A program made the translations under genes and the position numbers. Below, piece by piece: positions 30,481 to 51,900 of a stretch of 64,000 nucleotides of DNA. Below the pieces are notes generated by a model. That model was not told the DNA's origin, did no database searches, and worked only from the letters and a program-made list of their open reading frames with translations. This DNA comes from Podarcis cretensis. Its lineage: Eukaryota. Each line of letters begins with the position of its first letter. Positions within the stretch are counted from its first letter, which is position 1. Location of the stretch: contig OX638149.1 in the NCBI GenBank assembly GCA_951804945.1, positions 88,412,001-88,476,000 on the forward strand. The letters are read 5' to 3'.

Positions 30481-33400
30481 GCCTTGTGTGTCCTCCTTTC
30501 TCTCTCAGCGGAAGGCAGATGAGCAAATGCCTGGCGTATCCCCCCCCCCTTTCCTCCTCTGTTTTCTGTAGCCCAGGCCATCTCTTCACGAAGGAATTTT
30601 CTGGTTTCTTCGTTCGTCTTGTTCTTATGTAATGTTCGACATGTACGATGTGGTTCGTCATCTTCCTGGGTCTCGTCACAACCCCCGCTATTTCTGAGGG
30701 TAGGGGGCTAAGAGAGAAAGGCAGCGCCCAGTAGCCGAACAAGCAGCGATATGAATCTTATATCCAAGCCAAGTGCAAAATCCATTCCCTGGGCCAATCC
30801 TGTTCCTCCTCGCCCTTTGGTCTTCTAGCAGGGTTTTTTTTTTGTTTGTTTGTTTTTACAAACTCCTTATGAAAAACCGTAGATAGAGAAATAAATACCT
30901 TCTCTTTACCGCACAGTTACCTGGCTAGAAGCATATGCCAACTGAGATCTCTTCTCAGTCAGCTGCTGTTATGCCACTGGTTCCTTATGGATATTATGAA
31001 AAAATACTCCATGCAACAATCTCACTCTCGGTTAGTATTACAGCTGTGTTTCTGCCCTTTGCAGTATGGAGCTGTGTCGTTTTTCAGCCACAGAATCAAA
31101 ACAGAAAGAAAGTGACAGCCTTTCTCAAGCATGGTAAACTACCCACTGTTGTGGGAATTGTGTGTAAGGTAAAATTCTGAGAAGTAGCCAGAGAGAAATG
31201 TTTTTGTGGTTTTCATTATCACTGGCAGCAGCAAAGGTCTGCTAGTTTAGACTCTGTGCCCCTTCACAAGTGCCTATCCTCTTAAGTGTTTTAGTGGCAT
31301 TTTTAAAATTCAGGTTGTTATGTTGGATTGCCACAAGATGTCAGCATTTACAAATGGGTTGCATGACCCCCAAAACTTAAATTAATGTAGGCGTCTAATG
31401 TGATGTATGTGTTATTTGTTCTTCTTGAACACTGATTTGCCTGCCATGGTGATACTCTAAAGCAGTTTTGCCCTGGTGGGCTAGATCTTTATCTCTCCCA
31501 CCCCAATGGGCCAATTTTGAGAAGTGTGTGGGACCACCTACCTGTCAATCATTTGGTGACATATTGATATCAGGTGATTGACAGATGGACTGTTCCAACC
31601 TACTGTCATTGTTGGCCCTGGGGGAGAATTGAACTCCCTATGCATTAGCTCATGCAAGAGTTGTGTGTGTCTCTATGTGTTTCTGTCCTGCTCTGTACAT
31701 ACTGGGAGGTGCCAGTCCAGTTCCAGCAGGAAGAGGCTGATGTGCTTGATCTGAGCTGAATTGAACTTCCTGAGCATCAGCTAATGCATAGGAGTTCAAT
31801 CCTGATTTCTATCTGCCCCACACATAACATCATACATGATGGACTGGAGAAACCTGAGGAAATTAGCCTTATGTATCATATTAATATATTTTTTTTCTTA
31901 CTCAGGGCTCTGCCTTCAGAAGTGGAAGTCTTGGAGTCCATCTACTTGGATGAGCTACATGTGTCTAAAGGAAATGGAAGGTAATTGCAACATTGTCAGA
32001 TCCTTTGCTGGTTCTTTGTTTTATGGTATTGATCACTCCTGTGATCTTGCATATGTCATTGTGGAACTTGATTCCTGGTTTAGAAGACTGTACCCTGTTT
32101 TTGGATTAGACTACAGTGTCCTGCACAAACTCGGAATGAATTGCAACCCCTGATTCATGTTTGTTAATTTCCCAAAATATTAGTCACTTCTTTTTTCCCC
32201 CTCCTTGTATTTGATACTACCATTCTGAAATAGTTACCTTTGTAAGAATATGGGGTGGGAAGAATGAAAGGTCTGCATTATGCCTGCTTCAATCTCCTTT
32301 CAGCCTGAGAAAGGAAGGAATAACAACCCACCTGCATTATCTCTCCTGTTCCATCTTCCTTTCATTTGACACCAGACTCTCACTTGAGCCTCTCTTCAAC
32401 CCTAGGTCTGTGCCGTGGGAAATATCTATCACCCTTCATCCAGCAACTGCAGAGGACCAGGAGTCTCAGTATGTCTGCTTAACCTTGGTGCTATCCGTGC
32501 CTCTTCAGGTAAAGCCTTGTATGTCCTGAGTGACTATTTTGCTATGTAGCACTTTAGCATGGCTGTACTACTCATTTTGACTTGGCTGTGTTTCTTATTA
32601 GTATCCAAATGAAGTGCCAAAGATAGCCATCCAGAATCCTCGAGGGCTGTCAGATGAGCAAATCCAAAAGTAAGTGTATTATGCAAACTCTTTCCAGTTC
32701 AGTGCAAGAAGTAAGGTTTTCTTTGTTTCAGTCTGTCACACTTTTAATGGAAAGTGTGGGGAGGTGGGAGCTTCTTTATATTGTGTTCCACCTGCCCAAT
32801 GATCTTATGTGGAATATGTATTATGCAGCTGTTCTCTTAATTTAGAGCTGTGCTATGAAGGCTGTTGCTATGTTACTAACATTGGGAGCATGGGGAATGA
32901 GGTTACAAACAAGACTGGAAGTTCTAATCATGTAATCAACATGTTTGGGTACATATAAATTATGGTGTTTGTGTGTAAAATTGGCATTGGGGGAATACAT
33001 GTTAAAGGAGATCTTTCCCTTAAAAGTTATTGATAGGTGGACAAAATTAAGAGATGAGAGGCAATGCATCTTGGTACATTACTGTATCAGAAATGCAGCG
33101 TCTTCATCCAAAACAAAGTCCCAGCTTCTGTTGCTCTTTACACGTGGCTTACTAGAAACTGCTTTCCCTTCCATGCTTTCCCTTCCCCTAGAAGGGCTTC
33201 AAGCTGCTTTTTCAATTGCAGTCTGGTACCACTTCCTTCTAATTTGTACTGAAGTAGCTACTATGTCAGATGAGATACTGGGTGAGAGGCTGGAGCCCAT
33301 CCTGTATTGCTGTTGAGATTGCTATTGCAAGTGGCTGATTTAGCCACTCCAGTTCTTGCCATCTCACTTCCCTGGACATCTATTCTAGCCTTTCTCCTTA

Positions 33401-36400
33401 CCCTGCCCCCTTTTTTGCCTCCATTTTAGGATTTCCCAGACACTACAATGTACTGCTGAGGCCCAGCTGGGTACAGCTATGTTATATGAGCTAATAGAGG
33501 TAAGAGAACAGAAAGGGGAGGCAGGCTGTCCAGACCTATGGCTTGGGCTGTTGCGCCTTTATTGTGTGAAATGACAAACTGACCCTCTCTGTCTTCACAG
33601 AAGGGAAAGGAAATCCTTACAGACAACAACATCCCTCATGGGCAGTGTGTGATTTGCCTGTATGGCTTTCAGGTAAGGGCATGCTGGATTGGCATCTTGT
33701 TTTCATTTGTGGTAAGCCATAGGGAATAAAAGCACTAATATAAGGAGGTGGAAGAATGAGGTGAAGCTGGGACTCACTCAGAAAGGAAGGAAGAGGGAAT
33801 GGGAACTTGTTGGGATGTCTCTAGATCCCTTCCTTAGTGCTGTGTTGCATTCTGTTCTGCAAAAGTGTGTGCATGTCTCCCCACAGTGGGAAGGGGAGTA
33901 ACAGTGGGAATGGGGTGCAAAAAGCCCCTGTTAATGTGATTGTTTGAATCTGAGCCAGCATCCACAAATATTACATATGAATTGAAATTGGATTGAATGG
34001 GAATTATTATTTCAATGTATCCTGAAAACGCACAGTGTAGCTGATTTGTATTAATAGGAATCTGTGCCTTCCCCTGTGCAGGAAAATGAAGCTTTCACTA
34101 AGACGCCATGCTACCACTACTTTCACTCACGTTGCCTTGCCAGTTATACAGAGCATATGGAGGAAGAGATCCGTGCAGAGAGGAAAGAAAGAGTACAGCC
34201 TTTGGCACCTCTGCCCAAAGAGGTAATAGCTCCTTGCATGCACCCCACAGCTGCTTCTAGAACTTCACCAACTTTTTCCTCCAGGAATGGCTTCTGAATC
34301 TGGATCAACATTTCCAGTTCATTTTGGTTATTAGTTATAGCGTTGAGAGCTGTGGACAGGATTTTCCCAGATAAATGTTGAAATGGTTTTCCATGGTTCA
34401 GTGCTGTGCATACTTTCGCATTTGCAAGTTATTTTGTCTACAGAGAACAAAATGTTAAGTGATGTGTAAAGTCTGGGAATCTAGTTAAAGACCAGAGGAG
34501 ATGGTCAACATATCTTCCTTTGCTTCAAATACTAAAGAACTGGGGTTCTGTAGATAAAAGCAATCTTCGCAGCTGTAATGCAAGTGACCAAAAAGTAAAC
34601 TCACATTATATCTCATTGAACACCTGTGTTGGTGTGCTTATTGGTGGAAAAGATTGTGAATGGACTTCAACATACACAAAAAAGCTTTGCCAAGAAACAA
34701 AAGTTATCTTCCTCCACTCCCAAACAATAGAACAGTTCTGAGGGCAGGGTTGCTAGTGGTGAGTCTTCACTCTGGCCCAGGAGCATCTTATAAAAGAGAG
34801 CGCTTTACTGATGGATGTTTATAGAATGAAGTTAACTAAGTTCCCAGGAGGCTTGGATGATGAGCTCAGAATCCAGGCTGCCCCGTGATCCTTGTAGTCA
34901 AACTGCACAGCACTCTTCTGCCAATAACACTGTTGTTGAGTGCTAGAGCTCCCCAGGATGAGTAGCAGTTTATCAGGAAAATATTACTCTCTTAAGACAC
35001 ACTGGCGGAGTATGAGAACAGTAGCTGTATATCCCATGACTAGGTCTAACCAAGGCTGAATTTTGTTGTTATTACCTTGTGTACAGGAATTTGAAGTGCA
35101 GTGCCCTGTGTGCAGGGAGCCTCTGGTTTATGATCTTGCAACATTGCAAGCAGCACCACCTCCACAGCAGCCAATGGTAAGGAAACTTTCAAAACAGACC
35201 TTTCACATGGACTTGCTGCTCTTTAAAAGATGCACCAGGCAGGCAGCCTCTTGCTTCACTATTCTCTCTCACTTATTGGACCTGTTGGGCAACCCCATTT
35301 CTCCAAATGAGGTCTGTTAAGTGTTATTTCCAAATAATCATATACCTGGTGCTCTGTATGTCTGCAGGTGGCTATGAGTTCTAACATTCTTGCCAATTTT
35401 TACTTCTACACCAGGGAGAGGAAATTATTTTCAGCCAGGGAGCTGTCTTCCTTTCTATTCAACCTTCCAGGGGCCACATAGGAATTTTATTGTTTGTATA
35501 GCAGGCTAGTTTCACACCCCTTCTTCATTTAGGCAAAAAGTATTAACAGAGTGAAACAACAGATATAGTCAACCCGTGTCTTTGCTTCCCCGTTACACAA
35601 TAGGTAGTACATTTAGTTGTGTTTAGAAATACCAGCTTAGGTTCTAACTAAGAATCCTCTGGGAGGAGCATGCTGTGACTGGAGTTTTACTAATGAGATG
35701 CTCTTGTCTGTGTAAGGAGGTGGGAGGCTGCATTTCCCCCCCCCCCAGTCTTTCTCTCTGCCTGCCCCCCGGCAGCCCCTTTGCCCATCAGATCTGGAGG
35801 GTTGAGAGACCCAGAAGGCTCTGTTTGGGCCAGTCATCTAATTACATGCCTCTCTTTCCTCAGGAGGTGTACCAACCTGACACACAGACACTGCAGCACA
35901 GAGAACAACTGCGCCTGATCTATCAGAAGCAGCAGGAGAAAGGAGGCATCATTGACCCTGAAGCAGAAAGAAATCGCTACTTCATCAGCCTGCAAAAGGT
36001 TAGTGCAGGCAGCAGGAGTACTAAGAGGATAATGGTCATAGGGAAAGAATGAAACAATGGAGGTAGTAATTTTTACTTGCTGAGACATCCTGTCTTGTAG
36101 CACAAGAGAGAGCTTTGTTATTTGCATCCTAGGCAATTCTTTTAAAGTGCTGATGACACTTGTTGCTGGCAAGTTTGCAAGTTACTATAGGTAAAGATTT
36201 AAGCAGCAAAGGCTGGGGAAGACAGATGGGGCGACATCGATATATTAATTCCTGTGGGATCTTTGCCACTCAGACTGAGAATCAAGCCTGCTGGGTTTAT
36301 GCATTTTCTGCCCTTCATTTTGGTTTCTATCCTTTTTAGCCCCCAGATACCACTGAACATGAACAAGTAGCCATCTCAGAAAATGTTCTGGATACTGACA

Positions 36401-37080
36401 AGGAACTGAGGCCATCAGTAGGCTCAGAACATACCCAAGGAACTGCAGAGGCTGCTGTTCCAGTGAGGAATGAACCTGAAAAACCAGAGAGACCACCTGT
36501 CCCTTTGCATTTCCATAGCAAGAGAGAGAGGACTCGAGAGGAGAAACCATCTATACAAGGCCCTGGCTGGCAGCTGCGCTACAAGTCACTGGAGACACCA
36601 GCAGAAACTCATTGTCTTCTCACTGTTGAGGGAAAATCCAGAACCTTCAGTAGAAGACCCAACTGGAGAAAGGAGAGGGGACAGCGAAGCTGTGGGAGGT
36701 ACAATCAAGACTTCTCAAAATCTTGCAGCAGAGACCAAGTGTCTTCACTGGTGGAGAAAAAAGAGCTGCGCACCAGAGGAATCTCACCAACCAAAGAGGG
36801 AATGTATTTGAGAGAGGAGAAAAATGTTGTGGGGAAATGGACGCAGGAGCAGAAAAGTCAAGCCCATGACAGTGAGGAAGTAAACTTGGAGGTTAGCCAT
36901 AATGAGCTCAGGGGGTCGGCCAAGTGGCAGGGTCGCCGTGGGATGCAGGATTGTAGGCAGTGGGAAAAGCCCAAGGGCAGAGAACATGCATCTTATATTA
37001 AAGTGCCAAGAGGCCGAGGACGCACCCCATTGAACTCAAGGAGAGAGCTGCAGAGCCAAGAGACTGAGGATGGCTCCTAG
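30415..37080 (+). CDS. RNF25: E3 ubiquitin ligase RNF25 (AO7; RWD + RING-H2), complete, 10 exons, ~514 aa
   Basis: Exons 30415-30464, 31906-31980, 32406-32508, 32602-32669, 33430-33499, 33601-33672, 34082-34222, 35087-35176, 35864-35998, 36340-37080; phases consistent, total 1545 nt. Motifs LPSEVEVLESIYLDEL, YPNEVP (RWD), CVICLYGF..CYHYFHSRC..CPVCRE (RING), QQEKGGIIDPEAERNRYFISL. Confidence 0.95.
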
Positions 37081-37290
37081 CAGGCAGGAGTTGAGGCTTG
37101 AGGGGCTTTTTCTAGGAACAAACACTGGTGATTTTGTTGTGCTGTCAACCATTGGCCTTGATTGTACGGAAAAGCAGATCTGTCTTGAAATTCTCCTCTT
37201 GGCCATGGGTGGTTTATGTCTTGCAGAGTAGGGGTATATTGTCCTCAGAAATCAGAATTACTGTCTGTGGACTGTAGTAAATAACTGAAT

Positions 37291-37296
37291 AATAAA
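37291..37296 (+). terminator. Polyadenylation signal of RNF25
   Basis: AATAAA ~210 nt after the stop codon. Confidence 0.65.
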
Positions 37297-37433
37297 TGGT
37301 AGCCAAATGCTATTGCCCATGGGTAAACTGTAGGATCTTACAGTGAATCAGCGCTGTGTAGAGGACTGTTTGAGGCTGAATCACTGAACTAAAAGCCAAG
37401 CTTGAAAAATAACTATTAAGTAACCCTGTTCTA

Positions 37434-37644
37434 GGGACGCAGGTGGCGCTGTGGGTTAAAGCCTCAGCGCCTAGGGCTTGCCGATCGAAAGGTCAGCGGT
37501 TCGAATCCCTGCGGCGGGGTGCGCTCCCACTGCTCGGTCCCAGCGCCTGCCAACCTAGCAGTTCGAAAGCACCTCCGGGTGCAAGTAGATAAATAGGGAC
37601 CGCTTACCAGCGGGAAGGTAAACGGCGTTTCCTTTACCTTTACC
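37434..37644 (+). mobile_element. Sauria-type SINE with internal deletion
   Basis: Head and ACCTTT tail retained, 3' body missing; perfect 13-bp TSD TAACCCTGTTCTA (37421-37433 and 37645-37657). Confidence 0.9.
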
Positions 37645-40600
37645 TAACCCTGTTCTAAAATAGGTGCTAAAAATAGAAGGACCATAAGGGAGTACAGGTC
37701 TCCTTGTTTACTGTCCAGAACTATGGAGAGGACTTGCCATTAACAGTGTCACTATTTTTAGACATGCCTTATTGATGGTATTGGCATATGTGAAAAGAGT
37801 GGACTTGAATCAACATTGACTTGGCGGCTGTTGACCACAGAGGGTTCCTTAAGCCCCCCAGCTGTGGCCAAACTGAATGTTGGAGTCTCCCACTGCCTCA
37901 TTGTAATTGGCTAATGTTCAGTAGTGATTGACCTTGAACTGCAAACATCAAACATGCCTATTCTAAAGGGCCTTTAAATTATAATAAGTCCAACTCCTTA
38001 CTCACCCAGTAGTTGGATTTGGAGCTAGTATTGGCAACAAAGGCTTCAGCTCCAGGTACACCAAGGCTCTTGTCTTTGCCTGTTTTCACAAATGTGATAT
38101 CCTGCAATGGTTTACTAACTGTAATCCTGTCCAGAGTTCACGTGACTTATGTTTTGGGTCTTATCATCTTTGATTCGAGCCAAATTTGGTTTTGTTGGGG
38201 TGAGAAGTCTCTCATGCTCAACTGGCTTTCCCTTCCTAACCTTATGGCTTTGTGTATGTGCATTCACCCACACACCATTCAAGAACAGCTCTACTCTCCA
38301 TTTGGGAGGGTAATACCAATGTACCTACCTATTTTTAGGCTACACAGTCCCTGTCATCTCCCTCAGCAAAATGCAGCCTTGTCTTCATGGGTATTTCTGC
38401 TCAGAGGAGGAATCTGTAGTAATATGGAGTACATGTGGCCACTATGCAAACATTTTGAACAGACTTTCCTCCACTTGTATTTCTATTTTGTCACATATTT
38501 ATGGCCTTCCTCCCCCCACAACAAATTTTACCCTAGGCTGTGTGAAAGTTCCCAAGCTGCTTAAATTCCTTATATGTCTGCAAAATGTCCCCCCACCCCT
38601 CCCCAAGTGAAGCTTTGCCAGACTTCATAATTTTCTTTTTCTGCTTAGCCATAGTAACATTGTAGATGTGTGACAACTTTACAGAGCACAGTGGCCAAAA
38701 TGACCTTACAATAGAAGTGTGACTGATTTTAAACCAGTTCATGCTAGAGGCTAAAGGATGTCATTACTTATTTGCATGCATGCACATATACCAGTTTGAG
38801 CAGTTCTGCCTATTAAAAGGATTGATGTGAGATTGATTTACCTCCCTGCACTGTGGTGAGGTGGAATTTGTGGTGATGTGATGCAAAACAGGAGTATTAA
38901 AAGCAATTTGAGTAAACCAATCTATGATTCTCTTTCGTGGATAAAGAACATAGCTGCTGTGCTGCATGTGATGAGACCATTCAACATTAGAAACCATCTA
39001 AAAAGAGGCAGGGAGGTAATAATCTATGACCCATGTAGTTTAGCTAAAATGAGGAACCTTTTGATTATAAATGAAAAACAATCGGGTTCTAATCTGGACA
39101 TCTTTCTGTTGGATTCACATTTTCTTTTTCTTTTCTTTTCTTTTGTAAACTATTCTTCTAAGGAGAAAGGCTGCTTCATTTTGCACCACTTGAAACTTCT
39201 GAACAATAATGAATGGTAGCCTACATAGAATATAAAACATGGGTAACACAGTATCTAGATCCTGATTGGCTTTTCTGGACAAGGTTATAATACCGACATA
39301 GGTCCAAGTCCAGGAATACCTAAAAGCTATACATCTTAGGGACTTGGGTCATAAAAACTGACCCAAAGGGGCTAATTGGTGAGCAAAGTGCATATAGCTC
39401 CTGTAAGTGTGCATTAGGTAAAAAAGAAAAAAAAAAGAAGGTAAGAGCTGGATGACAGGCTACTTTATTAGAGTACACAAACTGATCATTTGAGCTTGGA
39501 TGGATTATTTCAGATTACCTGTTAAAGTGAGCAGTCTTCCTGATTTGCTTGAACCAAACGTGCAGATATACAATGTCTGACTTTGCCCTATTGAGCAGCC
39601 ATCTTGATCTGAAGGGAGGTTATACAATGATGAACACTCATCCTGATGTGTGGAGGTTATATATATTTCCATCTATATATATTTCCATTTTTATACCACA
39701 CATTTTCATGCAGTTCCCAAATTGCAAAGAGTCTGGTTTTTAAAAGTGGATTTTGTTGCAGCAAAGCACTTATTCCACTTGAATTGTATAGACTTATTTT
39801 TCTGATATGCAACTGAATCCCTTCGAAATGTGTAATGGGAGGGTGCCATGCGAGAGGTATGGCAGAAGAGAGAGATGAACGTGCTCAAAACTGGAACAGG
39901 AGCCAAACATTAGACAAGTAGGAAGGGATGAGGCTGGGAAATAAAGGGACAAGAGGAGCAAAGGAGTGAGGGTACCATGTTGTGGGACTGAAGGTGAACA
40001 AAATACTGTTTGCCCCATTTGCTCTCTAGGACTGTTGAGATCCTTAAAAAATATCCATCATTATTAATAAGTGTTTGATTATAGGGCATACACAGCGTAC
40101 TCATGGAGGAAACAGCTGCTGCTTTTTTTTTCCATTCTGACATTCTTGGTGAATGGCTGTGCCTTCTTTGAGTAGGTCTCAAGGCTTCTGGATCTGTGCT
40201 GTTGATCACATCCTCTGCTTGACACTTTCCCCTTCTACTGTTTTGCTGTCTCCTGATAGTTCTGCCTTCCTTTTTACCAACTGCTCTCGATCCTTTGAGG
40301 ACTCTCGCCCTCATTTCATAAACCCACCCCATTTTCTTCCATCATGTCCACATCCAGCAATTTCTTTTATAAAATCTCTGAAGTGCAGGATCCGTTTCTT
40401 CCTGAACCTTCCTAGTCTTTCCCATGCTTTCGCCTATTTGTCTGTGATATACTGTCCCACCCTGGGTTAAAACTAATACCTCAAGTATCTTCTCTCTCCA
40501 CCCCCCCCCCCAATGTATGAAAGAACAATTCCCCCTTTCCATGTTTTGCTGTTGTAACATTGGCAAGAAGAGCAAGTGCTGTTTCACACCTGGGTGTTGC

Positions 40601-40608
40601 TATAAATA
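40601..40608 (+). promoter_or_regulatory. Candidate TATA box of the olfactomedin-like gene
   Basis: TATAAATA ~350 nt upstream of the putative signal-peptide exon; no CpG island, consistent with a tissue-specific secreted gene. Confidence 0.4.
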
Positions 40609-40791
40609 GAAGTGGAACCACCTGCCTCAAGGAGAACACTCAATGGCACTAACAGTACGTCCTAACCCAGCCTGCATGGAGAACCTCATTGTAACCATTA
40701 ACTCAGATCAAACAGACTTGGGAATCGTTAGAGATCTGGCAGTGCTGTTTACGGCATACGTAGCTTACTGCGCGCGCACACATATATATGT

Positions 40792-40875
40792 GGTTGTTTG
40801 TTGTTGTTTAGTCGTGTCTGACTCTTCGTGACCCCATGGACCAGAGCACGCCAGGCACTCCTGTCTTCCACTGCC
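40792..40875 (-). mobile_element. 3' end fragment of an RTE/BovB-like LINE
   Basis: (TTG)n tail plus AGTCGTGTCTGACTCTTCGTGACCCCATGGAC, typical of the BovB-family 3' terminus. Confidence 0.6.
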
Positions 40876-40952
40876 TAAACTCGACACAAGTATTTCCAAG
40901 GTGGGAAGAGTGAGTGTGTACATTGATGTTTGGGTGATGGGCACCATTTTGA

Positions 40953-41009
40953 ATGAAAATAGTGAACCAAGACATTATTTTGGTGTTACTTTGCCCATTT
41001 TTGGCACAG
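40953..41009 (+). CDS. OLFM4-like putative exon 1 (signal peptide MKIVNQDIILVLLCPFLAQ)
   Basis: Hydrophobic N-terminal stretch. A phase-0 GT donor (weak, GTTCAG) joins to VAA-DQ in exon 2, giving a plausible signal-peptidase site. Confidence 0.5.
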
Positions 41010-42176
41010 GTTCAGTCATCTGTCGAGATCATAACGAAACATTGCACAAGGGTTCCCAAGATGGGGGCAGCAATCTTTGGCAATGTTTGGATGCTGGATG
41101 CCAAGCCTGTGCAGAGCTTGTCTGAGACCCATGGCAGAAGTCCCCTGCTGACTGGGAGGAATGGGGTACGTATTATTGGCATGACAGTCCAGCAAACCCC
41201 TGCCCCGTCCCCCAGCTGGCTTAGCCCTCTGAGGCCCGGGGCAGGTATGCCTGGCTCCCCCCACTCTACAAAGGCTTCCTGGTCACTATCTTGAATCATG
41301 ATGGCAGACCAAAACATGACTTTGGCATGACTTCACCCAATTTTTGGTGTGACATGTCTAAACTCACAAATTACACTATCTGTTTAAAAATAACAACAAC
41401 AACAGGTTCCTAAAAATTCCCAGGCAGTGCCAGGCACCCCCTGCTAATAAAAGTGGGGGAACCATCTTAGTGATATTTTATATTAAATCCTGATGGGATT
41501 CTGATGCTGATGTGCTGGGGATGCTGTGAAAATTATTCCGTGCATGAATGGGGAACTCTTACCTGTGATTCCTGCATAGCAGGGGTGGAATAAATGAGCT
41601 TTGGAATCCCTTCCAAGTCTACAATTCTACGATCCCACAATAAACACCCATCTGGAAGCACCCCAAAAGCCCAAGACGTACGAGAAAACAAATGATTATT
41701 TCCCTTTGGCTTTGACACATCAAACAGGGTTTTAAATGCAATAATTCCTACTTGGAAATAATTTATACAGTGGTATAAAGAGGCATGACATGGGTCTGGA
41801 GATTCTTGCATTTCATTCAATATTGTGAAACAATGTTTTTGTTCAGGAATCACATGAGACGCAACCAGAACTTAGTACTACAGTGAGTTACTTAAGCTGC
41901 ATATATACCTTTAAAGCATATTCTGCTTCTGGGCACTGTCCTTTACTCCTTGCAGAGTTACGATTCCCAGCAACCCTTAAAAAACTGCAGTATCTAGAAT
42001 TCTTTGACGGAAAGAATGTGCTTTGAATATAAAAGTGTAGTGGATATACTCCAGTGGGAAGGGAAGGGCAGGAGAGTAGAGTGTGAAGGGATCGTGGTTT
42101 AGCACCAGCAAGAGTAGATCGAAAGGAGTGGATTGAGGCTGTAGGAGAGCAATCAGCTCATAGGCCAAACAAACTA

Positions 42177-42401
42177 CAGTGGTACCTCAGGTTAAGTATT
42201 TAATTCGTTCCGGAGGGCCATTCTTAACCTGAAACACCACTTTAGCTAAGGGAGCCTCCCGCTGCCGCCGCGCCGCTGGAGCAAGGTTTCTGTTCTCATC
42301 CTGAAGCAAAGTTCTTAACCTGAAGCACTATTTCTGGGTTAACGGAGTCTGTAACCTGAAGTGTATGTAACCTGAAGCGTATGTAACCCAAGGTACCATT
42401 G
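42177..42401. mobile_element. Same MITE family, opposite orientation, in OLFM4-like intron 1
   Basis: TA|CAGTGGTACCTCAGGTTAAG ... TAACCCAAGGTACCATTG|TA; internal sequence is the reverse complement of the 1070-1295 copy. Confidence 0.8.
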
Positions 42402-42653
42402 TAGAAGCTTTATTCTTTCAAATGGTAACTACCTAGACTCAGTACAATCTGTTGGAAGAGACTTTGCCCAAAAAACACAATGTAGAAGGCTCAGTCTAGA
42501 GCTGAATGGGGAGCATTTGCTGGCTAAAGGATGTGGTGGGGAGGTTGCTGTTCTCAGGAAACTATCCTGACCTTAGTTGACTATCAGGTTATGAGAAAGG
42601 GCTAAATCAAGCGATGAAGCATCCCATTTGCCTTTCTGCATCCATCATCCCAG

Positions 42654-42827
42654 GTTGCTGCAGATCAGATCATCTTCCACAATGGACCAATAGCAAGTGA
42701 TGACGAAAACAATAAATGTATCTGCAGCATAGAGCTCCCCGACACTACTTTTCCTTCACATCTGATATTTATCCTGGAAAACGCTTATAAGAACCTGAGT
42801 ACTATTTATGAAGAAGAAGCGAGCAAG
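42654..42827 (+). CDS. OLFM4-like exon 2 (CxC multimerisation region); absent from the ORF track
   Basis: cag|GTT...AAG|gtaagg, 58 open codons: VAADQIIFHNGPIASDDENNKCICSIELPDTTFPSHLIFILENAYKNLSTIYEEEASK. Resembles OLFM4 CQCSVSLPDTTFP...FEKELSK. Confidence 0.85.
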
Positions 42828-43440
42828 GTAAGGGGGCACACTTCGGCACATAGACAGCATACCAAATATTTATTCCCTGCCTTGAATCACTAATGCTGTC
42901 TAGTTCTGACTGTTTCCAGCAGCTGAACAATATAACACAACACAATCAGTGACTACAGTATCTATCATATGAGCACTGATCCAGAGCATATTTTCTACAG
43001 CGTTTATATTTGCTTACATGTAAGATTGGCTTGTTAAGAAATTGAACTGCATCCCTCTCATATTATTTCTTACAAGTCTGGCTGATGAAGAATTGATCAA
43101 GATTGGCTGATGAAGCATTGAACGAAACAGATTGGTTATCCGGAAACTCTGTTCTGGAGATATTTGGTGACTTTTGAATTATTCTACCGCGGCTGGTGAA
43201 GAAGATTTAGAGACTTTGGTTGTAATTTCTGATCATTTGTATTAGTCTATAAATAGTGTTTAGTGCCATTGTTATTGGCCATCATGCTGTGTTATATTGT
43301 TCAGCTTGTCTATATTGCAACACAGGGGTCTGTTTACGGATTACTGTTCCCAGCAGCTGGCAACACTACACAGGGGAATGGTACTGGTGGGGTGTGTGTG
43401 TGTGTGACAGAATGTGGCTCACAGATCTTTCAAGGCATGT

Positions 43441-43441
<1 letters not shown>

Positions 43442-43471
<30 letters not shown>

Positions 43472-43731
43472 AAGAAGAGGAGGAGGAGGAGGAGTTTGGA
43501 TTTGATATCCCGCCTTTCACTCCCTTTAAGGAGTCTCAAAGCGGCTAACATTCTCCTTTCCCTTCCTCCCCCACAACAAACACTCTGTGAGGTGAGTGGG
43601 GCTGAGAGACTTCAAAGAAGTGTGACTAGCCCAAGGTCACCCAGCAGCTGCATGTGGAGGAGCGGAGATGTGAACCCGGTTCCCCAGATTACGAGACTAC
43701 CGCTCTTAACTACTACACCACACTGGCTCTC
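43442..43731 (-). mobile_element. tRNA-derived SINE (Squam3-like) with (CTC)n(TTC)n tail, in OLFM4-like intron 2
   Basis: Head GAGAGCCAGTGTGGTGTAGTAGTTAAGAG on -; near-identical to the copy at 54200-54436. Confidence 0.8.
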
Positions 43732-44044
43732 TTAACCCTTCCTCCAAAGCACTGTTACTGGATAGCCCTGGTAAAATAGTCCACCACCACCCACTATAAA
43801 CTAAATTTGTCAGTCACAGAAGTGCTCCGAGTTCTCCCATCTCCACACCCCAATGTTTGTGAAAGTGCAAAGTTGAAGTCTACTCATTGTCTGGATACAC
43901 CTTCAAAACTGAGTGATAAAAGAATGGTTGTTCCAGAGAAAAGGACAAGCATGGAAGCAACAATTGTAATGAAATGGTTGTTCATGATTTGTGGAAAGAT
44001 GTTTTCAGTATCCTGCTAAGTGTGTGTCCTGCAAATTTCTCTAG

Positions 44045-44254
44045 GCTATGAAACTCCAGACAGACTTGGCATCATTTAATGGTACCTTGGAGAAATTAAC
44101 TGCAACAGTGTGTCAGGTTGAGATGGAAGGTATCAAGGATGAAGAAACTTATCAAGACCTCCTAGAAAAAATTAATCATACGAAGCGATGGGCTCGGGAT
44201 CTGACTAATGCTCTAAGTGCAACTGATGCGGGCATTACATCTTTAACCGAACAG
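44045..44254 (+). CDS. OLFM4-like exon 3 (coiled coil)
   Basis: tag|GCT...CAG|gtaggt, 70 open codons, phase 0/0, heptad-like sequence. Confidence 0.8.
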
Positions 44255-45812
44255 GTAGGTACAAAATGTCTGGGAGCACAGCAGTTTGAATTGTGCTTGC
44301 ACATTGTACTGAATACACCAAGAGTGGTGCTCCTGTTTGAGAGGATTCAAACCTGCTTTAGAAAGGGCATTTGCGGGACTGTTTGGGGCTCTTCAAGGAA
44401 ACTTTAAAAATATTTCTGTGCAATGCTGAGTCCTCCATGGCAAGAGAGCTGCTTCAGGGAGCAGGAAAACATGGGATGAGAATTTTGCCTATTTTAATGC
44501 TTACCACTAGCATAAAGTCTCAAAAGAGGTTATTCCTTCCTTACCTCTCCTCGTTATTTTTTTAAAAAAACCAGACACTTTCAACATTCCATGGCTCATG
44601 GACCTAATTAAGAATGTTGTGAGCAAAGGCAAAAACCTCTGCTCCAAGGCATGTAAGATGGAGCCAAGCATCATTTTCATCAGGGATTTGGGGACTGGTA
44701 GTCCTACTAACTTAGTAGCACTAAGCCCATCCCTGAGCCAAAGGATGCACTGCCAAGGCTCTTTGAGAACCTGCTGCCACAACCACTATCCTCTTTCCTG
44801 GCCTCAAAGGTGATTTCTTAGCAATTGAGGACAGGGATGTGAGGAGGGAGGCTGTGCAGAACACAAGTGCCTTCAAGCCTTTTGCAAGTGCTTGCACTGA
44901 CTTCTTGCAGAAAGCTTAAGCTCACAAAAGTGCAATCCTTTGGAATTCAAACAGTGAGATATTCATGCATCCCTAGACGTAATGACTAGATGCACCTAAG
45001 TTCTGTTCAAATGTTCTTCAAAAGTGGGTGAGAATAGCACATGGAGGGGAGGGGAGGGGAGTTGGGGCCATGCACTCACATCTCCATCCACAGCATCCCC
45101 ACTGCCCCTCCTCTGACATACACACATTGAACGAGGAGGTCTGGGAAGGGGACCTCAGTGGCTGAGCATATCATAGATCCCCCCTGCAATTGGAAAACCA
45201 GTACTAGCAGGTTTCCTGATCTCAAGGAGGATTCTAAGGGCATTCCCTTAGGCAACATCCACACCATACATTTGAAGCACATGGCTTCCCCCAGAGAATC
45301 CTAGGAAATGTGTTTTGTGAAAGGTGCTGGGAACTGTAGCTCTGGGAGGTGTAAACTACAGTTCCCAGGACACTAACTGCCCAATTTCTGGTTGAAGCCT
45401 TGATGGGCTGAGATATAATGGCTCAGGCAGGCCTTAAGATATCCTGGACCCAAGTTGTTCAGGGTTTTGAATTTTTCTGAAAACTGCAGGTTCTTTTCAC
45501 ACATAGTACATCTTTATTGTAAGATGCTTAGCTGGGGGGTAGGATTTGAGAAATAAAGGCATACCCCCTTAGCACTTCTGAGATATTTCCCAGCCATTCA
45601 GAAGTCTTGGAGAAGATTCAGCTATTAAGAACAATCAGTCAATGTCTCTGGGTCATAGAATTATAGAGTTGGAAGGGACCGCAAAAGTCATTTAGTCCAA
45701 CTTCCTGCAATGCAGGATCTTTTTGCCCAATGTGGGGCTTGAACTCATGTCCCAGAGATTAAGAGTCTCATGCTCAATCCATACAATAACAAGAGAAGTA
45801 ATTGGTTACATC

Positions 45813-45817
<5 letters not shown>

Positions 45818-45862
<45 letters not shown>

Positions 45863-45863
45863 T
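45818..45863 (+). repeat. Compound (CT)n(GT)n microsatellite
   Basis: Direct observation. Confidence 0.9.
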
Positions 45864-45999
45864 TTGTGCATGCTTTAGCCTCTCTCATTCAATCACTCAT
45901 GAAGCTGTCAAACACATCTACTACCACAACACACAGGGAGACGCTGCAGTAGAAAATTGCTTGGGGCTGTTCAATTAAACATGTGCTAATATGTTTCAG

Positions 46000-46171
46000 G
46001 TCTCCAATGTCTCCAGTATTGTGTGGGAACTAGAAAAGTTTGACGAGAACAATGTGTTGTTGACACATAGGGAAATAGCCACGCTCAAGAAACAACTGGC
46101 TGATTGCGAAGACTCTGTTACAAATCCCAATTCTGGCCTCTCTCCCTCTGGAAAAGGGACTCCAGAGTTTG
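46000..46171 (+). CDS. OLFM4-like exon 4 (end of coiled coil and linker)
   Basis: cag|GTC...TTTG|gtgagt; resembles OLFM4 LDKNNVLAIRREIVALKTKLKECE; phase 1 matches exon 5. Confidence 0.85.
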
Positions 46172-48712
46172 GTGAGTCCTACCGTGTGATTGTGGGCTGG
46201 AACTTCTCCTTACATTGGTTTGTCTATAAGCTACATTATCATCACCATCATTATGATCACCATTATCACCGTCACCAGAATTAATATTTGTTGCTTTTTT
46301 CATAAAAGTGACTGAAAGCAGCTTGCGCTGTAAAAACCACCATTAAAAACAAATATAAGAAAAAGAATAACATCACGGCATAAAATGCTCATTGTATATA
46401 AAAGAGCAGATCCAAGTCAATCTGCCCCACTAAAAATGTGAGTGGAAGAAGACACCACAAACATAGTTAAGTACTCTCCCAAATGAAGGGCCAAAAGCCT
46501 AGGAGAATAAAAAAAAATGTTTTTGCCTGGGACCTAAAAGCAGATAACGCAACCAGGCATGCCTCCCTAGGGAAAGCACTCTACAAACGGGGAGCCACCA
46601 CTGAGAAGGCTTGCTTCAGTCTGGTCACCCCACAAACTTAACCCAGCTTCTTCTCACAACTAGCACATCCTCAGCGAGCTATTTGAGGCACCACCTGACC
46701 CAGGAAAATTTTGCCGTCGTTTTAGCTTTGAGCTCTTTCACTAGATCAGTTCTCAGCCTGTACCTGTAGAATTCAGGGTAAAAGGAATTTCCTAATAATT
46801 ACTGGATTACCTCCCACTTAATAGTTCTTTATATTATAAAGAGGCCTGCAGAGCCCTTCTGGTGCCACAGGGTCCCCCCGCCATTTGACATTAGACTTGA
46901 AAGAAGCATTCTGTTGCACTTACTAATAGAATGTAGCATGTGCTTGTGCTTAGTGCTCACAGCAGTTCTCAGGTTTGCCAATGATCCCAAAAGGGATGAT
47001 GACCACCTGCTTTAGTGAGAATTTTGGAAGGCAAACATGTAATGAACAGCTGATCAATGACAGTACAGAGGAGGAATTGGGAAGCATTATGCAGAGAAAA
47101 CACAGCAGGGCAGAGGAGTCTGGGTTGGGGGCCTGACCCGTTTTCTAAATGCAGTGGGATAAAACTTGGCAGAGCTTTTGAAACAAGCAGAATGCCTAAC
47201 ATGGTCACAGAAAACAAAGATGATTTAGTTACTTATCTTGTAAAATTTATGCACCTCTTGATTGTTAAAAAAACACAAAAAAAACCTCAGAGCAGAGAAA
47301 AACTTGTCAAGAGGAGCCACAAACAAAAGTAATTCCCTTTCTATTCCCTGGCAGGTAACTGCAACAACAAGGTGTTGATAAACGTTAGCAAGCCACTTAT
47401 AGTGAAAGTCAACTGGTGAGGTTTAAGCTACAAATTCGGAGCTTGGGGAAAGGACTTTGCTGTTGGAAACAAGAATCCTGACGCATACTGGGTTGCCCCG
47501 CTCAACACAGACGAGCGTTTGTTGGAAACCTACCGCATCTACAACTCCTATTCCGACCTGCTGCTCTACAAAAACCAAATACAGAAAAGCCTTTCTCAAT
47601 TTGTTGGGTTCACCTGGAACTACACTAACTGTGGGCAGGGAAGCGGAACTATTTTGTACAACGGCAGCTTCTATTACAACTGCTACAACTCCAGGAACCT
47701 GTGCAGGCTGGATGTGCAGGCTGGATGTGTTCAACAACTGGTACTCTTATAGCGGAATCAATTGGCAGGACTTTTGATTTCTCCGGGGATGAGAATGGAC
47801 TGTGGCTCATTTACTCCACGGAAAAAAACAAGGGGAAAATAATGATTGGGCAGCTGGATCCCAATACTCTGACAATAGTCAAGTCATGGCAAACCTCACT
47901 GTACAAGCCTAAGGCAACCGGCACCTTCATGATCTGTGGGGTGATGTATGCCTTGATGCGGGTGACTGAACACAACGAGAAGATCTTTTACAAATATGAC
48001 ACTAACACAGCCACAGAAGGCTCTATGGACATCATCCTGGAAAAGCTCACAGGCACACCGCAAAGCATAAGCTACAACCCCAATGACCACAAGCTATACA
48101 TGTACAATGATGGCTACCTGGTCACTTATGATGTGATATTCCGACGCGTCCCCCTGTTCCAAAAGAGGAGCGTGATCAGTGTGAAAGAGCCAGATACTTT
48201 TGCGATGGTCGGTAAAAACCACTTCAGCTCACAAGACTTTGCCATAGCTTGAAGGAGAAACAAGGCCAGGCACGCACAACATTTACATATTGGCAAATAC
48301 ATATTTTAAATGGTAAAAGTCTTGATTGTAAGGCCAGCAGACAGATTCTATCTTTAAAGGGTATAATTAAACAAGCCCTTTTCTTCACAGTGCAGTCAAG
48401 TGTCTACCTGTGTGAAGAGAACATGTCACAGGGTTGGCTGCTCTCACCATTGAACCTCCACTGCCTTTCCCTCGCACCAAATGATTCTGGCAGTAACAGG
48501 ATTAGGGCTTTGGTGTGGAATCTGCTATAGATCATGCCACTGAGTAACTAGGAGTTCATAAACAGCAGACATACACCCTGAAATCACCTTGTGTGTGTTG
48601 TGTTTGTGTGTGTCTGTCCCCTCCGGCTAGTTATGACACCTTTTGGGCCTCTCCTCAGATGTTAACATTTGCCATCTGGAGGACATAAGTTCCACAACAC
48701 CTGAGCTTCACA

Positions 48713-48766
48713 TTTATTCATTTTCAAGAGTTGCATTGTAGGAGTTATGTTGGGTTGCTCTTTATT
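48713..48766 (-). terminator. Candidate polyadenylation signals of BCS1L
   Basis: TTTATT on + at 48713-48718 and 48761-48766, 150-200 nt past the stop. Confidence 0.55.
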
Positions 48767-48915: not shown

Positions 48916-51900
48916 TCAGGATATAAGAGCTTGCACATTCTTAAGGGCTGCGTCCGGATCCGCCTTGTATAGCATGAAGTGGCCTTGGACTTGTGCGGCA
49001 CTGATCCGATCAGAGGCAGACACGGCCTGTTTGGCAAACTCCTCAGCCGCAGCTGCTGGCTGGTCTGGGTAGAACCTCTGGAACATGCGCCCGAGCTGCC
49101 ACTCTGAGCAGTACCCCACGTACTGCTTCAGGTCCACCCGGCCGGGCCGAACTAGTGCTGGATCGAGCCTGCAGGGAAAGAGGAGAAGACAAATGAGGCT
49201 CAGCAAATGCTCAGGTGGGAAATATGGTTCTCTATGCTCCTCTCACTTGGGGTATCATCTCCTTGTTCTCTCTCCAACCCCAAGAAGATACAGGGCTAGG
49301 GGAATCTGCTCTCCCCTTTATTTTTTGAGCTACTCTCTAAAAGAATATAAAGTAACAGTGCCTTGTAATTTAACTACACCCACGTCTTGCTGCACTCACC
49401 CATCATGCTCCTCTTTCTCCATACCTGCCAAGTTACCCATCCCCTCCTACAATCTCAGAGGAGCCTGCATGGAACCAGGAACAGTAAACAAGGACAGAAC
49501 CAGATCTTCAGCTTCTGTGTTAAATGCTGCAAACCAGCATGACCAAAGGAGGCAGAAGTCCATATGTATATATACCCCAGACCATTCCCTAGCAAGCATG
49601 ACCCCAGCGTTACCCAAAGCCTTACCAGCCAGTTTTAACTGGCTGACCCTGTCTGCTGAGCATTTGCTCTTCTACCCTGCACATGACTCCTTCAGCACCA
49701 GGCTTACATGGCTGGCAGAGTCCTGTGCTTGTGGGAGAGGATGTGTCACAGGTCTTGGAGACTACAAGAGCCCCAAGATAAGATTCTCTTCCGTCTTCTC
49801 CTATAGTATCATCTTCTGGAACAGGAAGTGTGTCTTCATTCCTGCTGCCTTCCTCCTTTTTATACTTACCAGCTTTTTATAGTTACCAGCTGGTCCCCAG
49901 AAAGGCAGACTTTGCCTCATAAAGACAGCACTTCCAAACTGCCCTCCTCTGTTACTCACTGCAATCTTCTTCTTGACTGAGTTACAAGGAAGCTCATGGA
50001 GTTGCCTTGTGTGAGCTAGGGATGGACAGATCAGTTTATTTGGGGTCCATGTCCAAAGTGTTACAGGTGTTAAGTCTGCTCTGTTGCTTTTCCACTTTAA
50101 AATCTGTATTTTTTTAATTTAAAAAATCCATACAAAAATTCGTATTTAAAAATGCAATTTATTATAAATGCATATTTAAATAGTATTTATCACAGGGTAT
50201 GCATCTCTAAATGCATTTCCTCCTAAAAAAATAATCTTAATGCATTTTTGGAACCAAGGACTGTATTGCAAAATTTGGAGGAGTGGGGAAGCTGAAGGAT
50301 AATTGTGAATTCGTTTGGGAGATACAAATTTGGCTAGCTTGCTTGAAAATGCAGACAAAACAAAACTCTCCTCCACCCCTAGCTTGTCTTCAGCTCAAAA
50401 ACACCAATGGAGACATCTTAGGCACTGTGTTACTTGAGGAATCCTTGGTCCCACCAAGGGAAGTGAACCCTTTGGATTGAAGTGGCCTACCACCAAAGGG
50501 ACTCCATTTGCAGGCTTCCTCCCAGCCACTGAGCGGTGAAGTAGGCTGATTTGCTGGAATACTGGTCCTTCCTGTGTGTGTGTGTGTGTGTGTGTAGCTG
50601 TTTCCCTGGCAAAACAACAGTCCTGCTCCTGTCTGCGTTTGGGCTACCGAGGGATTCAAAAACCTGCCTCAGGGGATACCTAACTTCTCCTCGTGGCATG
50701 CTTTGGCACCGAATGTGAGAGGGTTGAGTGGAATGGGTTGGGCGAGGTTATCATGGTGTTAGTGTCCTCACCACATGCCGGCTGGTGGTTTCAATGCGTC
50801 ACCAGTGTGGGACTTCATGTTGTAAGGGGAAGGTGATGAAGGAAATTCTCTATGGGACTGTCAGTTGTTGCTACATCGTCTCCTTCCCCTCCCCCTTTCC
50901 CCTTCCTACTTCTGTTACAACAGTTTTGATTTAGCTGCTAGAGGAATGTAGAATCCTAAACCACTGTAGACTCCAGCTTATCAGCCACTACCTTCCTTGG
51001 GTGCCATTAAATGATCATTCCCAAGCAAAAGGTTATCTTCTGCAGCTAACAACCTCTCTATCTGCCCCCATTTTCTGTGCAGTGCTTCTGACCTGTCCAC
51101 ATAATTGGTGGTCATGAATACGATCCTTGCTTCGGAGGAAGCCACACCATCCAATGCGTTGAGAAGGCCACTGAAAGTCAGGCGTCCCATGCCTTGGTAT
51201 GCGCTGGGGTCTGGAGGGAAACACAGCGGCACAGAGACAGCTCAGAGGGAGACACTATAGGTACAGTTGCGACCAAGGGCTGCCCAAATTCTTTCTAGGT
51301 TTATAGCCTTCCAGGGGAAGGGCAACAATCCCACTGTTGTGGTCTTATGTTACAGTAGTACCAGCTTTATGCTCCCTGCCTGATGTGCAGTGGTTTGCGA
51401 AATGTTCCTGACACACTGCTGTCCAAATAGATACATGAAGGGGTCAGAGAAAATCATGCCACCTGTTGGCAAAATGCAAGTCGATAGAAAGCAGGACAAT
51501 AAACAGTCAGGATCCTATGTCAAAAGAAGGCTGGCAAAAAGAAGTGCCTCTAGGATCTCTGCTGGCGAATCTCTTCCACAATGCAAAAGATGTAAACCTG
51601 TCCCGAAGCGCCTGTCTTGTTTCAAGTCTCTCTTTGTATATGGATAACTGATTTGGAATAGGTGTCACATTAAAGCCTGCAGATAACTATTTATCATTAT
51701 ATTTATTCAATCTATTGGTAGCTTGCTACATAAAAAGTATCGAAGTAACTCACAAAGTTTTAAAGACATAAAGCAAAAAAAAACAACAACACTCAATAAG
51801 AAAAGAGAGCAATACGTTGCAATTAAAAAGAAACTGTACAAAAATCCAGAGAACAGACACAGTAAAGCAGCAGGGGGGGAAACTTGGCAACAAAGCATAT

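Follow-up and report, generated by a model that had tools for sequence, protein, structure and literature searches.

Question and main finding

The locus considered here raises the question of what stands between the genes RNF25 and BCS1L in a wall lizard, two genes which we take to be direct neighbours in human, with OLFM4 presumably at 13q14. The window, that is the whole stretch of DNA analysed, comprises 64,000 nucleotides (nt) of Podarcis cretensis (assembly GCA_951804945.1, contig OX638149.1, positions 88,412,001 to 88,476,000, forward strand). In it the stop codons of RNF25 and BCS1L face each other tail to tail across 11,835 nt, and this gap, put at about 11.8 kb by a first-pass annotation of the same DNA, is indeed filled by an olfactomedin-like gene. 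Our analysis points to a lizard paralog of the OLFM4 subfamily that moved into the interval, has a broken last exon and is now decaying, likely as a young pseudogene without a folded protein. We hold this account to be probable, with some room left for the alternatives weighed below.

Exon structure and lesions of the last exon

The following exons have been identified, numbered as in the first-pass annotation.

42654..42827, + strand: exon 2, with the CxC motif at 42717-42725; AG/GT borders, phase 0; 85-91% identity to Podarcis models
44045..44254, + strand: exon 3, coiled-coil region; AG/GT borders, phase 0; 94% identity to Podarcis models; long helices in the predicted model of an ortholog
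46000..46171, + strand: exon 4, end of the coiled coil and linker; AG/GT borders, ends in phase 1; 97-98% identity to Podarcis models
47355..48252, + strand: exon 5, olfactomedin domain, broken; AG acceptor; Pfam OLF in two frames

Three introns of GT-AG type, of phases 0, 0 and 1, separate exons 2 to 5, so that the gene is not a retrocopy, as had been concluded before. Of the five phase-compatible exons proposed in the first pass these four stand, but the first is unsupported. The exons share 87-97% identity per stretch with the model of Podarcis muralis and 94% overall with the Podarcis models referred to as 'olfactomedin-like'. The cysteines of the CxC motif are residues 22 and 24 of exon 2 and, as described earlier, are followed by a coiled coil, which appears as helices in the predicted model of an ortholog. 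In a protein alignment the exon junctions fall on ungapped columns in OLFM4 proteins, where the introns of OLFM4 are presumably situated as well.

Exon 5 makes up 898 of the 1454 nt of exons 2-5, and three frames are needed to follow the orthologs through it. The OLF family of Pfam (PF02191) has been assigned to it in two pieces, covering profile positions 15-95 (E-value 1.3e-14, 54.8 bits) and 124-246 (E-value 1.8e-45, 155.9 bits) against a cut-off of 23.9 bits, and this split over two frames is a sign of a broken frame. The olfactomedin domain reported in the first pass is thus recognisable, but it is interrupted by a TGA codon and two frameshifts. In the lines below X3, X4 and X15 denote runs of other samples.

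47417..47419, + strand: premature TGA at an Arg codon, polymorphic; Arg in 4/4 named lacertid orthologs; runs X3, X4 and X15 read CGA
47700..47729, + strand: frameshift 1, a 13-nt tandem duplication with a net 29 nt lost; tandem repeat of period 13, 2.3 copies; X15 has 29 extra letters
47750..47752, + strand: TAG that closes the frame after the shift; residue 318 with exon 2 as the start of the count
47772..47775, + strand: frameshift 2, a T run lengthened by one T; X15 is one letter shorter; X3 and X4 are as the window

The shifts sum to -28 nt and the reading frame is not restored. Of about 493 residues, numbered from the start of exon 2, the frame reaches residue 207, or residue 318 with the TGA read as Arg, and the exons do not encode the intact protein that had been described. 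With the first frameshift near residue 320, over half of the propeller (about residues 200-470 in the model of the Zootoca ortholog) is lost, including the DExGLW motif, of which the Glu is conserved in 65/65 aligned proteins and the Trp in 64/65. The DExGLW and CG motifs are present in the DNA beyond the frameshifts, and no complete propeller is found in one open frame; the Zootoca ortholog has a complete propeller with both motifs in a single open frame. Judged from its sequence, the most that the allele of the window could yield is a shortened chain lacking the propeller and any clear signal peptide. That the gene is broken here, and that its lizard orthologs already carry automatic 'olfactomedin-like' annotations, is what the first pass had missed.

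Relationship to lizard orthologs, paralog B and OLFM4

Orthologs with open frames are annotated in 22 named lizard species distributed over geckos, skinks and girdled lizards, lacertids and a worm lizard, anguimorphs and iguanians, 16 of the species being assigned by tree and 6 by identity only. The window gene is 94% identical to that of P. muralis, 94% to P. raffonei, 88% to Lacerta agilis and 85% to Zootoca, and in the protein tree it groups inside Podarcis, represented by two models, with a support of 97/92. On the lacertid stem (branch 0.3) about 20 positions that are near-invariant elsewhere changed in a burst older than the lesions. The orthologs form a clade, referred to here as A (100/99), with a second set of lizard genes, paralog B, as its sister (A+B, 100/99). 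Among the 120 matches listed per search, the identity band of the orthologs contains no protein named as that of a snake, tuatara, crocodilian, bird or mammal, six Logan proteins being unassigned. For snakes no named ortholog of A or B occurs among the matches listed, though snake records of BCS1 are many; a long-branched protein in clade A, P0024, could be a snake.

OLFM4 of mammals, birds, turtle and skink stands apart from A+B and joins the OLFM4 of Callorhinchus at 96-98 in three trees, and A+B is joined with turtle 'olfactomedin-like' genes at 86/85. The best non-lizard matches listed are amphibian, with identities of up to 46%, ahead of OLFM4 at 41-44%. The tree check also bears out that the gene is not a one-to-one ortholog of OLFM4: the two form separate clades, and the skink Tiliqua has both genes on different sequences, OLFM4 on one of 242 Mb and the lizard A gene on one of 314 Mb. 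A lineage other than OLFM4 and older than the amniotes is favoured by these sequence comparisons, though not securely.

The alternative that survives best concerns this origin. A and B could be fast-evolving duplicates of amniote OLFM4, copied in the lizard stem, with the affinity to turtle and amphibian genes arising as a long-branch error. Long stems (0.36-0.82) lead to A, to B and to A+B, and forcing A+B with amniote OLFM4 gives a P value of the approximately unbiased test (p-AU) of 0.051, which does not reject the grouping and tells against the origin we favour; the value is 0.036 with the turtle genes added, the groups of both tests having been named after a first tree was viewed. A alone with amniote OLFM4 is rejected (p-AU 6.9e-05) under a constraint that expels B and four unnamed rows. 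The separation in three trees, the position of Callorhinchus OLFM4 and the lead of the amphibian matches over OLFM4 speak the other way, and we consider an origin from OLFM4 itself unlikely, while still giving it some weight.

The named matches among the 120 listed are olfactomedin, olfactomedin-4 or olfactomedin-like proteins and the rest are unnamed models with an OLF domain; myocilin and noelin match about residues 291-470 only, and Atlas look-ups returned OLF clusters only. Two unnamed proteins, P0397 and P0399, possibly mammalian Olfm5, lie on the OLFM4 side of the tree.

A profile search of six frames of five intervals in the window revealed no remnant of paralog B, the best score being 4.7 bits in a reverse frame. 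The model of Phrynosoma has two B-type domains in tandem and that of Varanus looks part B, part A. The lizard models are suggestive of B and A genes arranged as a tandem array of variable size.

Other samples and the state of selection

Contigs of other samples were compared with the window over 45880-48570 for 4 of 24 listed runs. One of the four, X5, has no record listed over exon 5, a gap to which the filter of the comparison leaves no meaning. X3 and X4, which have the same species label as each other and as the best match and come from one study, contain both frameshifts (2/2 samples, contig depth 8.8 in X3 and 111-123 in X4) and read CGA at 47417, so that assembly error does not account for the frameshifts, while the stop varies between samples. 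Frame-breaking lesions common to individuals, by which unitary pseudogenes are recognised, are therefore seen here in both frameshifts. A single contig of X3 spans 45880-48570, which leaves no chimera in that stretch, and adds a 3-nt deletion at 47978. Four of the five listed coding substitutions between X3/X4 and the window change the residue.

X15, with another species label, has both frames open, with the 29 letters and without the extra T, and carries in one contig of depth 6.2 its own TGG-to-TAG change at 47887-47889 as well as a Glu-to-Gly change in DExGLW. The listed coding differences between X15 and the window are 14 changing and 2 silent, for a neutral expectation of about 2.8:1, in a count that omits 7 unlisted difference rows and mixes two X15 forms; the corresponding P is 0.16 for a ratio of residue-changing to silent rates (dN/dS) of 1, 0.012 for 0.5 and 0.0006 for 0.3. 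Coding divergence between X15 and the window (10/279) is not lower than that of intron and flank (7/629). The P. raffonei model has Cys for the Trp of DExGLW, the sole such row among 65, and two close gene models, P0385 and P0468, leave out exon 5 wholly or for the most part, a hint that more copies may be broken.

One X15 contig joins 46889 to 47651, skipping 761 nt with 3 shared letters, no GT-AG ends and a side of 23 nt; if genomic, this skip would delete the exon 5 acceptor. As other X15 records cover the skipped part, two forms occur in X15. In this run, presumed to be RNA, intron 4 from 46886 and exon 5 are found unspliced, with no exon 4 and no joint of exons 4 and 5. Such a pattern could arise if transcription of BCS1L, on the other strand, ran on into the gene, the contigs being without strand, and the pattern has no bearing on expression.

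Several observations weigh against a decaying gene. The frames are open in the RefSeq-type models of P. muralis, P. raffonei, L. agilis and Zootoca. Departures from near-invariant columns number 28 and 22 of 211 in the Podarcis models and 26 each in Lacerta and Zootoca, with no separation, so that genus-wide decay is not shown by this measure. The broken form of X15, known from one record, may represent a rare allele or else a second copy of the gene. Alleles are collapsed in the contigs and no more than two further samples were seen, so that intact alleles may still be present in the population.

One alternative is a working gene with segregating null alleles, in which the window and two samples would carry a common broken haplotype while intact alleles are under selection. 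The polymorphic TGA, the two forms that X15 seems to hold, the open frames of the named Podarcis models and the intact splice sites of exons 2-5 are all in line with it. However, both frameshifts occur in 3/3 samples of the species label (the window, X3 and X4, of which X3 and X4 belong to a single study), and additional changes have accumulated on the frameshifted background, which makes a gene kept by selection improbable.

Position in other species and proposed history

Synteny was read from sequence lengths and accession order in the record metadata, for the matches listed. The gene of Lacerta agilis (XP_033016803.1) and its BCS1 (XP_033016815) are encoded on one 133.75-Mb sequence, with accessions 12 apart, and in Lerista the gene and BCS1 share one scaffold of 23.7 Mb. 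A model of Anolis sagrei (XP_060629374.1, named RNF25 isoform X1) is comprised of RNF25 residues 1-271 fused to paralog B, likely an annotation error or a read-through transcript. The RNF25/BCS1L position recurs in this way in a lacertid, a skink and an anole. The accessions of A and B differ by 2-3 in Eublepharis and A. carolinensis and by 27 in Heteronotia, and RNF25, B, A, BCS1L is the order we infer for the ancestral lizard.

Outside the lizards, the listed relatives lie off the sequence of BCS1, on one of different length, in 14/14 amphibians, 5/5 cartilaginous fishes and 1/1 turtle, which favours arrival in the lizard stem over loss in mammals. Hyla, Ascaphus, Rhinatrema, Nanorana, Ranitomeya imitator, Engystomops, Geotrypetes, Pristiophorus and Latimeria were dropped from this count (small scaffold, other assembly or no length); Spea, Dendrobates and Callorhinchus were kept, look scaffold-level and weigh less.

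The first pass had offered a choice between a DNA-level duplicate brought to this locus in reptiles and an ancient paralog lost from it in mammals. Parts of both stand, as the lineage looks old and the position lizard-specific, but loss from the locus in mammals is not shown. An ancient gene at this very locus would agree with a lineage that seems older than the amniotes, and turtles are represented in the comparison by a single species, whose gene lies on an unplaced scaffold of 233 kb, tuatara and crocodilians standing outside the comparison; against this, 0/20 of the non-lizard assemblies compared place a listed relative on the BCS1 sequence, and we allow the idea a small chance.

In the history that we prefer, a subfamily branch other than OLFM4, found also in turtle and amphibian genes, would be the ancestral source. 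A DNA-level copy or move would have brought it into the RNF25-BCS1L interval before the geckos split from other lizards, and a tandem duplication at the locus would have given A and B. In this lacertid B would have gone without trace at the locus, and A in wall lizards would now evolve with no detectable purifying selection and with different lesions per lineage.

The signal-peptide exon and the question of a truncated product

Two stretches upstream of exon 2 have been considered as signal-peptide exons.

40953..41009, + strand: exon 1 of the first-pass annotation, unsupported; ATG and hydrophobic run, but donor score -2.7
40104..40148, + strand: weak candidate for a decayed signal-peptide exon; hydrophobic run and good GT donor, no in-frame ATG

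The first of these is not upheld: apart from its poor donor, it is outside the ten best matches to a profile made from nine ortholog signal exons and is used by 0/4 lacertid gene models. The best profile match in 37081-42650 is 40110-40148 (score 5.7), one of the other 21 background bins being higher (8.9), and no candidate for a signal-peptide exon exceeded background in that interval by a profile scan with and without one indel and by all ATG-to-GT candidates. Zootoca alone among the four lacertid models has a signal-type start, those of P. muralis, P. raffonei and L. agilis beginning with three different non-signal sequences; other lizards besides Zootoca have signal-like first exons in their models. 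The lacertid signal exon may have decayed, or the annotations may have been built without RNA.

The lesions are confined to exon 5, the frame is open through exons 2-4, and exons 3-4 are 94-98% identical to Podarcis models. A truncated product of about 318 residues with CxC motif and coiled coil could on this basis still be made as an oligomerising secreted protein without propeller, nonsense decay not being expected for lesions in a last exon. We regard this as very improbable, since no signal-peptide exon was found in the interval scanned and 3/4 lacertid models have none either, lesions in an exon that accounts for so much of the coding length need no special cause, and a second stop segregates further upstream.

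Assembly error or a chimeric interval is hardly credible: a single T in a run and a short tandem duplication are both typical error shapes, but both lesions are reproduced in contigs of two other samples, run X1, which may be the source sample, contains 1.00 of the sampled words, the stretch spanned by one contig of another sample is in one piece, and related gene models take 39859-39915, 40835-40900 and 48661-48738 as exons, linking the gene to both flanks elsewhere.

Predicted fold and function of the intact protein

The single-sequence fold of the Zootoca ortholog is poor, with a predicted local distance difference test score (pLDDT) of 38, and an alignment-based model has been used instead, with a pLDDT of 82 overall and >90 in most of the olfactomedin domain. 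It has helices at residues 48-99, 104-153 and 160-182, and its top Foldseek matches are the olfactomedin domains of noelin and myocilin. Lacertid proteins contain 7-9 N-glycosylation sequons. The intact lizard product is predicted from this model to be a secreted glycoprotein with a signal peptide, the CxC motif, two long helices and a C-terminal propeller.

In a review (PMC4206993), bullfrog olfactomedin is described as secreted into nasal mucus and polymerising through disulfides that include the N-terminal CxC, and OLFM4, which has five exons in human, as forming disulfide-linked polymers and binding lectins and cadherin. Olfactomedin-4 is named among the abundant proteins of caiman tears in another paper (PMC7412644), which shows the subfamily in a reptile secretion and is not evidence on the lizard A gene itself. 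By analogy, the intact lizard protein is likely to serve as a disulfide polymer scaffold in some mucosal or glandular secretion. A fuller scenario, doubtful as a whole, is that A and B have been a lizard-specific pair of mucus scaffolds since the lizard ancestor, serving nasal, vomeronasal, oral or skin-gland secretion and subject to stepwise loss, with A dying in wall lizards; B would then be lost at the locus in lacertids, both perhaps in snakes, and independent null alleles perhaps segregate in several species.

A literature search found no paper on the gene or the locus, subscription papers and supplements being largely outside the search, so that absence from print is not established; of two papers checked for terms, PMC10990284 and PMC7971075, one cites the review and the other names OLFM2.

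Neighbouring genes and other features of the window

36340..37080, + strand: final open frame and stop of RNF25, the upstream neighbour; stop-to-stop frame 36340-37077, TAG at 37078-37080
48366..48371, + strand: possible polyadenylation signal ATTAAA; motif only, 114 nt past the ancestral stop
48916..49170, - strand: last coding exon and stop of BCS1L, the downstream tail-to-tail neighbour; stop at 48916-48918; Pfam AAA_lid_BCS1, E-value 1.2e-22

The gene order in the window is kinase exons (-), RNF25 (+), olfactomedin-like gene (+) and BCS1L (-). The kinase exons are taken to be STK36-like from their frames and from the usual gene order. Earlier exons of RNF25 at 31910-36001 are matched by the Anolis sagrei model XP_060629374.1. 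The final frame, 36340-37080, has no Pfam match; it is a low-complexity stretch of 246 codons, and the fused Anolis sagrei model departs from RNF25 just upstream of it. In the last exon of BCS1L 80/84 residues are the same as in Lacerta agilis BCS1.

Repeat-like short interspersed insertions, judged by eye, are seen at 37435-37650, 40780-40880, 42190-42400 and 43490-43730, and a repeat at 46552-46613 attracts many contigs in the sample comparison. A TATA-like motif followed by ATG within 35-55 nt occurs in two cases, 40601-40660 and 43248-43430. The latter, a stretch of intron 2 with a TATA-ATG-CxC-like arrangement, was rejected as a coding candidate: it enters a GT microsatellite that mimics a CxC exon and has no Pfam match.

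Significance and comparison with known systems

The present analysis corrects the earlier finding, as the genome does not encode the secreted protein described, and it resolves the 'olfactomedin-like' label of the databases into a lizard clade apart from OLFM4 that has a sister in tandem and was likely relocated. Should loss be ongoing across wall lizards, this well-sampled genus would offer natural knock-outs of a mucus-type protein and dated relaxed selection, with a gene in mid-loss whose intact and null genotypes live side by side for comparison. The relocation, the tandem pair and the possible ongoing loss seem undescribed, but they are ordinary kinds of event and involve no new mechanism.

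The lizard 'olfactomedin-like' models (P. muralis XP_077779540.1, P. raffonei XP_053231030.1, Lacerta agilis XP_033016803.1, Zootoca vivipara XP_034966191.1 and 18 further species) represent the same gene, in the same clade and with the same exon ends; theirs are open-framed automatic annotations, whereas the window copy is interrupted by a stop and by two frameshifts. Paralog B (Anolis XP_062823376.1, Eublepharis XP_054826063.1, Heteronotia XP_060118452.1) is the sister clade, lies on one sequence with A at near accession numbers and shares 37-39% identity with the Zootoca A protein. Amniote OLFM4, of olfactomedin subfamily V, has in common with the gene the CxC, the coiled coil and the C-terminal OLF domain at 41-44% identity, and differs in its separate clade and, in Tiliqua, its other sequence. 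Bullfrog olfactomedin, the amphibian olfm4-like arrays and the turtle olfactomedin-like genes are the nearest non-lizard relatives, with 40-46% identity and a like architecture, situated off the BCS1 sequence; bullfrog olfactomedin and tiarin themselves are absent from the labelled rows of the tree. With unitary pseudogenes the window copy shares an intron-bearing gene in its orthologous place, frame-breaking lesions and an excess of residue-changing differences.

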